Shown piece after piece: positions 52,700-63,967 of a DNA stretch of 64,000 nt. Numbering within the stretch: position 1 is the stretch's first letter; each line of letters begins with the position of its first letter. A model generated the notes under the pieces. That model did not search any database and was not told where the DNA came from. It was given only the letters and a program-made list of their open reading frames with translations. A program made the position numbers and the translations under genes. This DNA is from Escherichia phage allfine. The stretch lies in sequence record MN850633.1; one strand, written 5' to 3'.

Positions 52700-52925
52700 A
52701 CATCCCTACCTGCACCCACCTACCTGCACAATTCTAAAATGATTTTTCTTGCCCGACCTGATTTTTCTCTGCACGTTTTGAAAATGAAAAAGCTCTTTGG
52801 AGATTACCTGCACAGTTTGAAAATGAATTTTCCCTTTGGAGTTCAAAATTTTCTCTACAGATTTCTCTACAGAACTCTACCTGCACAATCCTGAAATGAA
52901 AAAGCCCCCCTTACCTGAAAAATTT
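52700..52925. repeat. iteron-like array: four to five copies of TACCTGCACA...AAAATGA units plus 11 bp tandem TTCTCTACAGA
   Basis: TACCTGCAC at 52707, 52721, 52805, 52878 and TTACCTGAAA at 52911; TTCTCTACAGATTTCTCTACAGA at about 52852-52874. Confidence 0.5.
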
Positions 52926-52972
52926 ACCAGATAAGAAAGGCTTAGTCTATTGTGAATACTATACAGAATTTC

Positions 52973-53758
52973 TTAGTTCTTTGCGTCTAAGAAGGTTACT
53001 TCCGGTGAAGAGAAAACCGTCTCGATATCCTCATCATTTCTTGCATAGATGTAAGCATCTGCATCACTGCCAAATGTTACTGCAATTCTGTGATTGCTCT
53101 TCGACAGGTGGGTAACTAGAGCGTTACTTAGAGACATCTTCTCAACCGGAGGGTTACTTTGATGTATCTTACCTTTTCTTCGTCTGAAGAGGGTAACTGT
53201 ATCATCTGTGAACATTACTACACCTGCAAAGTATTCTGGTTCACAGTAGTTATTCCAACCTGAGCGTAACTTGTGGTACATCTCTCCTTCGTAGACATAC
53301 AGATAAACATCTACACTCTTCATCACCTGATTAATGATAACTGTGACGGCTTGAGGGTCTAGCCCACCGATACCTGCACCAATCATAGGTAGACCAACTT
53401 TCTTCAACTGATTGACTTCACAGTATCTGTTAAGCTGTTTCAAAGATGATTCTAAAGCACTGTATCGGGCATCTTTACCAGTCTTAAGCTGAGTGTAAAG
53501 GTTAGCTATTCGACCTTGTTTTAAACGTGCTACAGAGAAATTACCCAGTAAATTTTCACAGGGTTTGTGTCCTATACCACCTGCATATAGATAAACTTCT
53601 GTATCGGTCTCATATGCTTTTGGGTAAAGTTTAGAAATCTTGTCAGCGATACCTGCACCCATTAAATTCATACAGTTGCAACCGTGACCGATGATGTCAA
53701 ACTTACCTTTATCAAATGCGGCAAAGATATCACCATTGATTATTTTTACAATACCCAT
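52973..53758 (-). CDS. macro-domain protein of TARG1/OARD1/DarG type (ADP-ribose hydrolase fold) with about 110 aa C-terminal extension
   Basis: INGDIFAAF ... HGCNCMNLMGAGIA ... LPMIGAGIGGLD parallels TARG1 KGDLFA ... HCISEDCRMGAGIA ... MPRIGCGLD (TARG1 recalled from memory). Confidence 0.6.
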   Translation of the reverse strand: MGIVKIINGDIFAAFDKGKFDIIGHGCNCMNLMGAGIADKISKLYPKAYETDTEVYLYAGGIGHKPCENLLGNFSVARLKQGRIANLYTQLKTGKDARYSALESSLKQLNRYCEVNQLKKVGLPMIGAGIGGLDPQAVTVIINQVMKSVDVYLYVYEGEMYHKLRSGWNNYCEPEYFAGVVMFTDDTVTLFRRRKGKIHQSNPPVEKMSLSNALVTHLSKSNHRIAVTFGSDADAYIYARNDEDIETVFSSPEVTFLDAKN

Positions 53759-53959
53759 TTAACATCTCTCCCAAGATTCTTTATCTTCTGAAGGTTTTAC
53801 ACGTTGTCCTTCGTGGTCTACCCAGATACATCCACAACCTTCACAGATTACTGGCATTGCATAGCCAGCTTTAAAGTCATCTTCAGTGATAAGACCTTTT
53901 AAGTCACCTGTATCACGTCCGAACATTTCGATAGAACAGTCTTTGCAGAAGTCAGCCAT
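53759..53959 (-). CDS. small zinc-ribbon protein (66 aa)
   Basis: Track ORF 53759-54049 truncated to MADFCKDCS start preceded by AGAGG; CxxC ... CxGC pairs. Confidence 0.4.
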   Translation of the reverse strand: MADFCKDCSIEMFGRDTGDLKGLITEDDFKAGYAMPVICEGCGCIWVDHEGQRVKPSEDKESWERC

Positions 53960-54179
53960 GAATAATTGCCTCTTGAATGATGATGCCTTTACCACAACGA
54001 CTTTTAAAGTCTTCCAACGGTTGGGAGATGAAGCCGCGCAAGCAATCACTAAATACTAAGTTTTTCCTGTAAGCTATCACAAAGTTTGTTGTAAACGGGA
54101 TGACTTCATTTCTTCCAATGAATACTGCTGACCGGATGAGTTTCCGTGTCTTTTTATCTCTGGCTAGAATTACTCTCAT
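53952..54179 (-). CDS. hypothetical protein (75 aa)
   Basis: ORF fills otherwise empty interval; start uncertain. Confidence 0.3.
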   Translation of the reverse strand: MRVILARDKKTRKLIRSAVFIGRNEVIPFTTNFVIAYRKNLVFSDCLRGFISQPLEDFKSRCGKGIIIQEAIIHG

Positions 54180-55786: not shown

Positions 55787-56482
55787 TCAATGTTTAACTA
55801 ACATGGTTTTGATGTGTGGAAGGATTCTATTCACCTTCTGCACATTCTTCTCTGTATCTTCTATAAAACATACTATATTAAAGTAAGGCAGAATGCAAGA
55901 CTGAATCATCCTCACTTTCAAACTTTCTGCACTTATAGAGTTAGTCCCAAAACCACGCATAAAAAGCATGTAGTCATGCTCTGTGTTATGCCTTAAAAAC
56001 ATCTCAGTAGGTATTCTCTGAGATTCGCCTCTCGCTGTCAAGAGTCCAACGGCAGCATGATTAGCAATTGCATCAATGATATTGAAAACATACGTTGGTT
56101 TTGCTCTTACAGAGTCAAGAAGATTAGTGTACTGTGAAAATGAACCATCAGTCAGTTCCGTTGAACAATCTTCGTGATTAAAATTTGTAAGAACACCATC
56201 AATATCTGCTAAGATGAGATTCCCTTTTTCTATAAGGTCTTTATTGACTATGACTAAACTATCACGTTTTACACCTATGGATTGTCCAGTCTTTTTGTCC
56301 ACAACGTTCACAATTGGTTCTGACGTGTGGAACTCTTCAAGTGAACATACAACTTCTCTTGCGGTGTCTTCAAAGTCTCTACACTGTTCTGGAGTCCATA
56401 CACAGGAATCAAGACCTAACTCATGAGGATGTAAGTCATAAGCATGACACAGTACTTCATCAGACTTTTTTAATTTTTTCAT
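55787..56482 (-). CDS. HAD-superfamily phosphatase/nucleotidase-like protein with N-terminal extra domain
   Basis: HAD motif I DxDG present as LADIDGVLT. Confidence 0.5.
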   Translation of the reverse strand: MKKLKKSDEVLCHAYDLHPHELGLDSCVWTPEQCRDFEDTAREVVCSLEEFHTSEPIVNVVDKKTGQSIGVKRDSLVIVNKDLIEKGNLILADIDGVLTNFNHEDCSTELTDGSFSQYTNLLDSVRAKPTYVFNIIDAIANHAAVGLLTARGESQRIPTEMFLRHNTEHDYMLFMRGFGTNSISAESLKVRMIQSCILPYFNIVCFIEDTEKNVQKVNRILPHIKTMLVKH

Positions 56483-61239: not shown

Positions 61240-63021
61240 TTAAAGCTGCTTGTCAATATTATTTCGAATATCACCAAGAGTTGTGTAACCGAACTGTTCA
61301 GAGTCACTAAAAATTAAGCGTAGAGCACAAGCTGGGTGGTCAAGTGCATCTGCAAAGCTCTGGAATCCATAGCCATCTACAGCTTTCAGCTTCTCACCAT
61401 CCCACATAGGTGCTACACCACCAAAGGCAGATTTCTTAACACCACTATCTGTTTTAGGGTCTTTTGCAAGCATAATCTCTTTACCACCAATGCTTGCAAG
61501 AGTTGCTTTGACAGCAAATGCAAAGGTGTCACGAGTCATGTACTGGTAAGTGTAAGAACCTACGCCAAACACTACGTTAGAGCTTGCAAAACCCATTTCA
61601 TACAGACGCTTCAGGATTTCGTTTGCACGTTCCAGCGTGATAGAGTCACCATAGATAAGTCCGATATGCTCATCCAGTACCTTAAACCCTTTAGAGTTAA
61701 TAGTTCCCCCAAAGATGTTGTACAGTGTCTTAATAGCTCCATCAATCTCAGCTACAGGACGTGTTACAACGTTTGCAGAACCAACCATATAAGCATTTTT
61801 CAACAGCACTGTATCAGCAACTTCAAAGTCTTCTCTGTCAACAACCATTTCGTAGCCTTCTGACAGTAGCCATCCAGCAATACCATAATTGATGTTTTCA
61901 AGCTTCATGTTCAGGACAGAGTTCAGCATTGTGTCACTTGCCTCTAGCTTGCTTAGGTGCTCGTAATAAGCCTTCTTAGCACACTCTAAGTGGATTGCTT
62001 TATAGCCTGTGACAATATGTACAGGGTCTCCAGAGTCAGGACGAATTACCAGTTTGCCATCACGTTCCATAATTTCTTTACGGAGTGCTGGTAAGATTTC
62101 TGACACAGTTCTCCAGAAGTTATAAGTATCTGAAACAATACTTACAATACCAGTTGGGTAAGTTTCTGTTAAGAAACGACGGAAGGTTTGTAACTCACCT
62201 TTAAAGCGTCTTTCTTCTTCAATCAGTTCATTACCACCTTCCCAAGCAATGTTTGCACACATTACAGAGTGTTCAGTGGCTGGTACAGAACTACCAATAT
62301 CAGAAATTGGGTAAGACTGTCCATAGATGCGTTTAGCCGTGTATACAGCAGGGAAACTATCAGTTCCTTTAAAGCTGGTTAAGTGACCTACAGCATTAAA
62401 TGCGTCATCGGTAAAGCCGGACATACCACGCATAGCAAAGTCATGGCACTGATAAGGTAAATGTAAGTCGTTATCGCAAGTAAGGTCAGCCCACTTCTTA
62501 CAGATACGTTTGTAGTGCAATGCGATAGTTGCAATGGTGCAAGCCTTCCAAATCTCAGCAGAGAAAGCATCTTCCAGATAACCTGCTACCCAATGGAAAC
62601 CTGAAACAGTGTTCTGGAAGACAATCATTGGGACACGCATCGGGACAACTGTGCCTTCTTCTACAGCGTATACTTCAACTGGCAGATAACCTAAGTCGTG
62701 AAGTGCTTCCCAATGCTCTCGACCGATAGCATCTTTACCCAGAACACCATTCATGACTTCTAAGATTTCGTCAATTGCTTCTTTTTTATCACGTTCAAAG
62801 AAAGTGGCGTTCCAGTGGTCTATCAAGTAATCTTTAACAAAACGTTGAATACCAAAAGCCACTACACCATCAATTGCTAAAGGGCTGTTAAACCATTTGT
62901 CGCTACGTGGTGTCAGGTTGAACATCAAGTACTCTGTTGCACTAGGATACTGGTAAACATGACCAGATTTGTAAGCATCTGCGTTTAAACCTGCTGGTAC
63001 TGCATAAAGCGATTTAGTCAT
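61240..63021 (-). CDS. nadV: nicotinamide/nicotinate phosphoribosyltransferase family protein (NAMPT/NadV-like)
   Basis: Type-II PRTase signature HDFxxRG present as HDFAMRGMSG; 593 aa; adjacent to PRPP synthetase. Confidence 0.75.
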   Translation of the reverse strand: MTKSLYAVPAGLNADAYKSGHVYQYPSATEYLMFNLTPRSDKWFNSPLAIDGVVAFGIQRFVKDYLIDHWNATFFERDKKEAIDEILEVMNGVLGKDAIGREHWEALHDLGYLPVEVYAVEEGTVVPMRVPMIVFQNTVSGFHWVAGYLEDAFSAEIWKACTIATIALHYKRICKKWADLTCDNDLHLPYQCHDFAMRGMSGFTDDAFNAVGHLTSFKGTDSFPAVYTAKRIYGQSYPISDIGSSVPATEHSVMCANIAWEGGNELIEEERRFKGELQTFRRFLTETYPTGIVSIVSDTYNFWRTVSEILPALRKEIMERDGKLVIRPDSGDPVHIVTGYKAIHLECAKKAYYEHLSKLEASDTMLNSVLNMKLENINYGIAGWLLSEGYEMVVDREDFEVADTVLLKNAYMVGSANVVTRPVAEIDGAIKTLYNIFGGTINSKGFKVLDEHIGLIYGDSITLERANEILKRLYEMGFASSNVVFGVGSYTYQYMTRDTFAFAVKATLASIGGKEIMLAKDPKTDSGVKKSAFGGVAPMWDGEKLKAVDGYGFQSFADALDHPACALRLIFSDSEQFGYTTLGDIRNNIDKQL

Positions 63022-63067: not shown

Positions 63068-63967
63068 TTAATCAAGGTTTGCTACAGTAACTTGACCATA
63101 ATGTGTTAAGCCACGGTCTTTAGCTTCCCCTAAAGAGTTTGTAGTGTAAATGTGGTCAATACCATTGTCAAGAAGGTTTTCAACACCTTTAGAGAAGATA
63201 CCATGTGTTACATAGAGTTCCACACGTTTTGCACCTGCTTCACGAAGATGTTTAGCTGCTTCTATGAATGTTCGACCACCATCACAGATATCGTCGAGAA
63301 TCATAACAGTTTTATCGGTCAAATCAACATCATCAAGGATTCGCATACCAGTAATTTCACCAGTCTTAAGGTTACGTACTTTAGACATTGTGATGTATGG
63401 TTTATCCACCTCTTTAGCAGTCTCTGCAATCTTCTTAGAAGCACCTGCATCTGGGGCTACTAAGTAATCAACCAGAGGGTCATTCGCATAGTGAACTGCG
63501 ACTTCCTTTTGAGGAATGCTTTGGAAGCAGTTAAATAGGTTGTCTGGTACATAACTGTGAGGGTCAACTGCACAGACTGCACCAAACCCCATTGCATTAA
63601 CCTGTTTAGCAAAAACCTTCAAAGCTGCTGCATCACCTTTAAACATGTGACGGTCATATCGTGCATTTGGTAAGTAGTAAAAAATGACAGTCTTTAAGGC
63701 ATATTCATGAGGAACTAAATCATCAATTGCTTCTTTAGCAAGTGCCACAGCAAACAATGTGTCTTTATCATAACCTTTTACAATCATAATCACATTGTTG
63801 ATGGATGATGCTGCGTGAGCAGTAAAGTCAACAAGCTCTTGTGAAAAGTGTCCACCAATCTCACCAGAAGGGAACTGGATGAGGTTAAACTCTTCTTCAT
63901 GAGACCCTTTTGTCGGTGAATGAATTATAACACGGATAGATGTTTTCATAGTTTTACTCTCAATCAA
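63068..63967 (-). CDS. prs: ribose-phosphate pyrophosphokinase (PRPP synthetase)
   Basis: PRPP-binding loop VMILDDICDGGRTF; about 299 aa; true start may be internal Met. Confidence 0.75.
   Translation of the reverse strand: MIESKTMKTSIRVIIHSPTKGSHEEEFNLIQFPSGEIGGHFSQELVDFTAHAASSINNVIMIVKGYDKDTLFAVALAKEAIDDLVPHEYALKTVIFYYLPNARYDRHMFKGDAAALKVFAKQVNAMGFGAVCAVDPHSYVPDNLFNCFQSIPQKEVAVHYANDPLVDYLVAPDAGASKKIAETAKEVDKPYITMSKVRNLKTGEITGMRILDDVDLTDKTVMILDDICDGGRTFIEAAKHLREAGAKRVELYVTHGIFSKGVENLLDNGIDHIYTTNSLGEAKDRGLTHYGQVTVANLD

Follow-up and report, generated by a model that had tools for sequence, protein, structure and literature searches.

A Tk.4-family macrodomain protein with an orphan C-terminal domain in a Felixounavirus, a candidate anti-DarT2 enzyme

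Does the macrodomain gene of Escherichia phage allfine serve to undo ADP-ribosylation of phage DNA, and what is the function of the second domain that its product carries? The gene is a single open reading frame (ORF) of 261 codons plus stop, from ATG to TAA, in the 64,000-nt stretch of record MN850633.1 that we analyzed (the window; coordinates in Table 1). The source phage is a Felixounavirus (Ounavirinae, a Felix-O1-like myovirus), 98.4% identical over a 3-kb region to Escherichia phage momo, whose gp74, annotated "putative phosphatase", has 100% amino acid (aa) identity to the protein studied here. Orthologues in other GenBank records are labeled macro domain protein, phosphatase, O-acetyl-ADP-ribose deacetylase or 'Poa1p-like', so that the macro nature of the gene is already recognized at the level of annotation, and the novelty implied by an earlier sequence-only reading of this DNA was overstated. 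The answer that we find reasonably probable, by analogy with phage T4, is that the gene encodes an AdfM-type (T4 Tk.4 family) anti-DarT2 enzyme that removes ADP-ribose from DNA.

A TARG1-like macrodomain of the phage Tk.4 family

The protein belongs to the phage Tk.4 (AdfM) family. It matches PHROG 335 with E=7.6e-113, and by tblastn the macro part turns up in 2,793 phage records, among them T4-like phages, whose copy is tk.4. T4 Tk.4 itself (NP_049723) is 35% identical over 161 aa (E=3e-24) and has in common with our protein the motifs HGCNC, NLYTQ and IGAGIG, which are invariant or almost so across 30 family members; the residues invariant in these members include H25, G26, N28, C29, N86, L87, T89, Q90, P124, G127 and G129. 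Both proteins fall in the same PHROG 335/'phosphatase' annotation group. They differ in architecture and in location: Tk.4 is a single 155-aa domain encoded in the tk/vs/regB region, whereas the protein of the window has an additional C-terminal domain of 104 aa and is encoded in an rII/lysin/spanin block.

The functional data on this family come from T4. A T4 phage without AdfA and AdfN still resists DarTG2, from which a further factor was predicted (PMC11825919), and tk.4 was the sole significant hit when T4 was subjected to HIDEN-SEQ under DarTG2 (preprint 10.1101/2025.11.20.689424, November 2025). The same preprint reports that T4 is sensitized to DarTG2 by a clean knockout of tk.4, and gives the gene the name adfM, for anti-DarT factor Macrodomain. 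The anti-DarT role put forward by the sequence-only reading is thus backed in a homologue. A second phage macrodomain that counters DarTG2, PhiKZ gp104, has also been named AdfM, and in vitro it strips a TNTC oligonucleotide of the ADP-ribose added by DarT2 (PMC13309987). For gp104 the removal from DNA is thus demonstrated biochemically, but this protein belongs to another, DarG-like subfamily and is only 23% identical to ours (pairwise E=3e-4). The two uses of the name collide, T4 Tk.4 being of a Gln type (NLYTQ) and gp104 of a DarG-like Lys type that keeps the FPTK lysine, and the shared name likely hides a mechanistic difference between them. Macrodomain counter-defense of phages against DarTG2 has been established only in 2025-2026, with T4 Tk.4 and PhiKZ gp104, and the Tk.4-type AdfM family now reaches Felix-O1-like phages of E. 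coli and Salmonella, which are in therapeutic use.

The N-terminal domain belongs to the ALC1-like/TARG1-like class of macrodomains. Three macro signature segments are present in the order that had been claimed, GDIFA (residues 9-13), HGCNCMNLMGAGIA (25-38) and LPMIGAGIGGLD (123-134), and the Pfam Macro profile (PF01661) aligns through positions 2-117 of its 118 with residues 25-141 at E=1.1e-7 and 32.3 bits, for a gathering cut-off of 22 bits. When a profile of the 30 family members is compared with PDB sequences, it retrieves TARG1 (3.9e-17), Mycobacterium tuberculosis DarG (4.5e-16), SCO6735 (2.7e-15) and Poa1p (4.1e-15), and it also matches BT1257 (2afc/2fg1) and the DarG of T. aquaticus. 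The AlphaFold2 model of the protein (predicted local distance difference test, pLDDT, 90.1; predicted template modeling score, pTM, 0.88) leads to the same proteins: in Foldseek TARG1 ranks first, with a target-normalized TM score of 0.82-0.86 and probability 1.00, DarG reaches a TM of 0.78-0.80 and Poa1p 0.76. There are 241 PDB matches at E<=1e-3, and macrodomains, with probability 1.00, make up nearly all of the top 50 listed. Most of the highest places in the profile search go to TARG1, DarG, SCO6735 and Poa1p, together with BT1257, and most of those in the structural search to the first four; viral MacroD-type Mac1 domains score lower. The nearest relatives are these proteins and not domains of the MacroD or PARG type. 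Both hidden Markov models (HMMs) and fold comparison therefore bear out the claim that this is a macrodomain of the TARG1/DarG class, and the resemblance goes well past what chance would give. With the DarG models of NCBIfam and PADLOC the match is confined to the macro part (about 1e-12 to 4e-13), and the NCBIfam DarG equivalog model, aligned over HMM positions 4-153 of 338, attains 47.7 bits, far short of its cut-off of 250.

Glutamine at the lysine position and the choice of substrate

The description of the protein as 'TARG1/DarG-type' holds for the fold class but fails for the catalytic residues. Human TARG1/OARD1 (PDB 4J5Q/R/S) is the best solved match, at E=1e-5 from the single sequence and with 24-25% identity, and has the GDxFA and MGAGIA motifs in common with our protein, but neither residue of its catalytic dyad is kept: in phmmer and profile alignments, with high posterior confidence, Lys84 aligns with Gln90 and Asp125 with Gly131. 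DarG2 (T. aquaticus/M. tuberculosis; PDB 5M31, 5M3E, 5M3I) has the same fold class and, like our protein, an N-terminal macrodomain followed by a C-terminal domain; the second loop of the phage protein, G-x-G-x-G-G-L-D, is also nearer to that of DarG (GVGNGGLDW) than to that of TARG1. Yet its catalytic Lys80 (FPTK) is replaced by Gln90, its DarT-binding C-terminal part is unmatched here, and no DarT gene is found among the annotated neighbors of the macro gene in the momo record. The FPTK lysine of PhiKZ gp104, which aligns with the FPTKK lysine of DarG (Lys80), falls on Gln90 as well, and the placement of Gln90 comes from three independent alignments. The sequence-only reading had expected equivalents of Lys84 and Asp125 and had stated that failing to superimpose the predicted catalytic residues on them would refute it; taken to the letter, Gln90 and Gly131 tell against it. 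The missing lysine does not refute catalysis, because SCO6735, with a glutamine at the same position, is active.

SCO6735 is an ALC1-like macrodomain of Streptomyces coelicolor (PDB 5E3B) in which, as here, Gln stands for the catalytic Lys and Gly for Asp. At the position of Lys84/Lys80 it has Gln85, without which activity is lost (mutants Q85A and Q85E), and this Gln is kept in position by Asn27, whose replacement by Ser leaves hardly any activity (N27S; PMC9411070). On DNA, SCO6735 hydrolyzes the link between ADP-ribose and thymidine, and it gives protection from DarT (PMC9411070; PMC12879935). In the phage protein, Asn28 of the HGCNC motif corresponds by motif position to this Asn27, the same conserved Asn being important in DarG, and BLASTP places it opposite the first Asn of the VNVVG segment of PhiKZ AdfM, a protein in which an Asn was mutated (N23A; PMC13309987). 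The His, Asn, Gln and Gly-x-Gly positions of SCO6735 all match, and the corresponding set in the phage family (His25, Asn28, Gln90, Gly127/Gly129) is invariant in the 30 members. T4 Tk.4 also has Gln at the lysine position. The relationship is nonetheless distant in sequence, and SCO6735 is a bacterial, DNA-damage-inducible, single-domain protein whose DNA-positioning K34 has no evident counterpart here, as judged from motif positions and not from an alignment. From these residues we infer that the Tk.4 family, this protein included, would consist of Gln-type ALC1-like hydrolases.

In such an enzyme, the N-terminal macrodomain would bind ADP-ribose and hydrolyze the ADP-ribose-thymine bond that DarT2-type toxins set on single-stranded phage DNA, and replication would be restored. 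Gln90, held by Asn28, would position the distal ribose for water-mediated cleavage, as has been proposed for SCO6735, with no need of the TARG1/DarG lysine. Since the Tk.4-type family, T4 Tk.4 included, has the SCO6735-type Gln without the catalytic Lys of DarG and TARG1, the phage enzymes probably use this less understood mechanism, for which Q90 and N28 are ready targets of mutagenesis.

The same substitutions (Lys84/Lys80 to Gln, Asp125 to Gly) could also be taken to mean that the protein is not an enzyme, and that its macrodomain does no more than bind ADP-ribose, serving as reader or sponge, or its C-terminal domain neutralizes the toxin stoichiometrically. Indeed, SCO6735, DarG and TARG1 whose catalysis has been knocked out can still inhibit DarT through interaction with it (PMC9411070), AdfA and AdfB are phage factors that work by binding to DarT, and the C-terminal domain evolves fast, as described below. 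But Asn28, Gln90 and Gly129, essential for catalysis in SCO6735, are invariant in the 30 family members, and T4 Tk.4 protects against DarTG2 without any C-terminal domain, so that we consider a non-enzymatic role very improbable.

A catalytic macrodomain could still have a substrate other than DNA. The 'phosphatase' label originates from yeast Poa1p (PDB 6LFQ-6LFU), an ADP-ribose-1''-phosphate phosphatase that has in common with the phage family the N-terminal motif HxCNC...GxGIA, and the protein could accordingly process soluble derivatives of ADP-ribose (ADP-ribose-1''-phosphate, O-acetyl-ADP-ribose, or ADP-ribose-based defense signals or toxic metabolites) instead of DNA adducts. Besides being among the best PDB matches in both searches described above, Poa1p outranks TARG1 and DarG when T4-type Tk.4, represented by the near-identical copy of phage AR1, is the query. 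A survey of viral NAD/ADP-ribose systems argues that the main targets of phage macrodomains are ADP-ribose derivatives of low molecular weight (PMC9503650), and a HAD-type phosphatase gene, annotated 'polynucleotide kinase', is syntenic with the macro gene a few genes off. However, Poa1p has Ser where the phage family has Gln (LFTS vs LYTQ), and among the residues mutated in its PDB entries H23 is conserved as H25, while S30 and F152 align with L32 and G131. Also, no KptA/Tpt1 or 2H partner was identified beside the gene, whose neighbors are all of unknown function, and the only functional data on the family, those on T4 Tk.4, point to the DNA-modifying DarTG2. We regard a soluble substrate as unlikely.

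Membership in the TARG1-like class, which is established, brings in a further set of substrates, namely RNA or protein, whose ADP-ribosylation could be reversed instead of or besides that of DNA (uracil-linked on RNA, or glutamate-linked on proteins modified by other host toxins). TARG1-like macrodomains, bacterial homologues included, efficiently reverse uracil-linked ADP-ribose on RNA (PMC13036486), and SCO6735 acts on a protein substrate too (PMC9411070). Evidence for such a substrate is lacking for every member of the Tk.4 family, and in the T4 screen tk.4 stood alone as a significant hit under DarTG2, for which reason we give this alternative little credence.

There are also arguments against the anti-DarT2 enzyme that we favor. 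Macrodomains of similar sequence can differ in substrate, and the identity to Tk.4 is only 35%. The nearest PDB sequence relatives of T4-type Tk.4 are the uncharacterized BT1257 and Poa1p, not DarG, and the equivalence of Gln90 with Gln85 of SCO6735 is drawn from the transitivity of alignments, not from a superposition of coordinates. The evidence on Tk.4 is genetic only, the hydrolase activity having been assumed by the authors and not measured (preprint 10.1101/2025.11.20.689424). Finally, there is no published experiment on any Felixounavirus orthologue, and a gene-essentiality screen in phage Bas63, run without DarTG (PhageMaP preprint), does not mention the macro gene.

The C-terminal domain and the exchange of alleles

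The C-terminal extension of about 110 aa had been described as impossible to place, and it remains so after our searches: residues 158-261 match no family and no known fold. The full-length AlphaFold2 model gives the domain a confident fold (block pLDDT 84-94), mostly beta, with a short helix, six strands and a terminal helix. Pfam, NCBIfam and PADLOC contain no significant family for it (the best Pfam scores, PH at E=0.16 and NAC at E=0.13, are below cut-off), and the DarG models of the latter two do not match the domain alone. By tblastn it is found in only 255 records, all of Ounavirinae type, and always inside the macro gene. An exhaustive HMMER search of 1.84 billion representative proteins with a C-terminal profile retrieves two-domain macro proteins and their fragments, plus six repeat-rich proteins (four of 2,000-2,900 aa, one PQQ-repeat protein of 434 aa and one tandem-repeat protein of 376 aa), and an indexed protein search with the profile yields a 54-aa fragment only. 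The six were rejected as spurious, their scores adding up several weak stretches; the repeat-rich matches that we checked include PQQ and sortilin propellers, YDG/MBG repeats and a retroelement artefact. We thus know the domain solely as an extension of Tk.4-type macrodomains in Ounavirinae-like phages.

Within these fusions the C-terminal domain has a rate of divergence two to three times that of the macro part, with identities in orthologue pairs of 82% (macro) vs 53% (C-terminal), 76% vs 44%, 53% vs 22% and 43% vs 15%. Metagenomic relatives of about 250 aa have a homologous, very divergent version of it (hhalign probability 96.6%, 20% identity), in the same gene order: rIIA, rIIB, lysin, a HAD-type phosphatase, a small gene and, after it, the macro gene. 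Net charge is not conserved across orthologues, ranging from -4 to +5, which leaves a generic role in binding nucleic acids or DNA unsupported. In the orthologue of Erwinia phage phiEa104 (L005 2498-3280; 260 aa), the macrodomain is followed by 105 residues whose homology to the Felix-type domain we rejected (hhalign probability 0.06%); in its macro part, Gln replaces the His conserved in the family (AQGCNC vs HGCNC). A metagenomic protein of 339 aa (P0026) has a Tk.4-type macrodomain fused to cREC_REC (PF20274), a cyclic-phosphate processing receiver domain. Domains of this kind are predicted to process derivatives of ADP-ribose. The tail of phiEa104, the cREC_REC fusion and the absence of an extension in T4 together depict a constant macro core to which a variable tail module is attached.

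Salmonella phage BPS17L1, of the same genus, has an allele of 259 aa that is 42% identical to our protein. In the alignment of both DNAs, the upstream gene of 66 aa is 97.5% identical and the 17 nt over the stop/start junction are 100% identical, while identity within the macro ORF is only 53-57%; past the terminator it recovers unevenly, with stretches of 80-88%. Identity to the BPS17L1-type allele is bimodal, with 13 records, of Felixounavirus type, at 95% or above, 251 below 60% and none between. The macro locus has therefore undergone cassette-like exchange by recombination and not gradual drift, a pattern that would fit a gene under defense and counter-defense selection. Record LR699048 (VpaE1_ev035), named as a derivative of VpaE1, has a macro allele of BPS17L1 type (95.8% identity), while KM657822 (VpaE1) has one of window type (41.9% to the BPS17L1 type), a difference that suggests a recent recombinational exchange of the locus. 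A second segment, the ORF of 75 aa at 53952-54179 (minus strand), is also replaced in BPS17L1 (52.5% identity, against 89-98% for the genes on both sides), and hence the block has at least two cassettes that can be exchanged independently.

The C-terminal domain could be an accessory module, specific to this lineage and evolving fast, that either directs the enzyme to a target as an adaptor or binds a toxin. The entire ORF behaves like a cassette whose alleles are exchanged among Felixounaviruses, which is what one would expect of an arms race. A bolder version, which we put forward tentatively and think rather doubtful, is that the domain recognizes a host ADP-ribosyltransferase, DarT2 or a different one. 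In that case the phage would have built a functional counterpart of full-length DarG2, able both to reverse the modification enzymatically and to neutralize the toxin stoichiometrically, and the sharply bounded, highly divergent cassettes (window, BPS17L1, phiEa104 tail) would be specificity variants suited to different variants of the host toxin. An orphan domain and the exchange of whole alleles between near-identical Ounavirinae genomes offer a natural system to study anti-DarT specificity, and exchange at this locus may affect the host range of therapeutic Felixounaviruses.

Gene neighborhood

Table 1. Features of the macro locus and the NAD-salvage genes in the window
Feature	Coordinates	Strand	Remarks
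Macro ORF, complete, 261 aa	52973..53758	-	orthologue of Escherichia phage momo gp74; PHROG 335
N-terminal macrodomain, residues 1-157	53288..53758	-	ALC1-like/TARG1-like; phage Tk.4 (AdfM) family
C-terminal domain, residues 158-261 (104 residues)	52976..53287	-
CAG codon, Gln90 of the NLYTQ motif	53489..53491	-
AAC codon, Asn28 of the HGCNC motif	53675..53677	-
Hairpin and T-run, terminator-like	52902..52943	-	~30 nt 3' of the macro stop; 3' limit of the exchangeable allele cassette
Cys-rich gene of 66 aa, upstream of the macro gene	53759..53959	-	PHROG 2210, function unknown
NAMPT/NadV	61240-63021	-	~7.5 kb from the macro gene
Prs	63068-63967	-	NAD-salvage gene

The sequence-only reading had drawn on the nicotinamide adenine dinucleotide (NAD) salvage genes, a few kb off in the window, to suggest a counter-measure to ADP-ribosylating or NAD-consuming host defenses. 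We found nothing that links it to NadV and Prs, which lie beyond rIIA/rIIB, lysis genes and several unknown genes, and T4 tk.4 has no NAD-salvage neighbors. NAD-synthesis genes are a counter-measure to Sir2-HerA in Bas63, a related phage (preprint 10.1101/2024.10.10.617714). Closer to the macro gene, the ten nearest neighbors that were scanned have PHROG matches only of unknown function or to 'polynucleotide kinase'. The latter is a protein of 231 aa (55787-56482, minus strand; PHROG 3970) for which the Pfam search came out empty; its metagenomic homologues weakly match the HAD_PNKP phosphatase domain, it has a DxDxT-like motif (ADIDGVLT), and metagenomic relatives keep it in synteny with the macro gene. 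Its activity may be that of a phosphatase and not of a kinase.

Immediately upstream, the TAA of the 66-aa gene (53759-53761) directly adjoins the ATG of the macro gene, which suggests translational coupling, and a Shine-Dalgarno-like GGGAGAG lies 5' of this ATG. The small protein is zinc-ribbon-like, with C5, C8, C39, C42, C44 and H49. A small gene is found just 5' of the macro gene in the relatives that we examined, abutting or overlapping its start in L003, L004 and BPS17L1 and separated from it by a 7-nt gap in phiEa104; its sequence is kept only inside Felixounavirus.

On the 3' side of the macro gene there is a gene-free gap of 510 bp, in which an Rfam search for an RNA gene gave no match. 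The gap contains three to four direct copies of a motif of 28-34 nt, TACCTGCACA(A/G)TT..AAAATGA, at about 52721, 52769, 52805 and 52878 (intergenic region 52700-52915), and a tandem of two TTTCTCTACAGA units at 52850-52873. In BPS17L1 the copy number of the intergenic repeats differs and there is a deletion of 31 nt. These repeats may be phage promoters or regulatory repeats for the next block of minus-strand genes.

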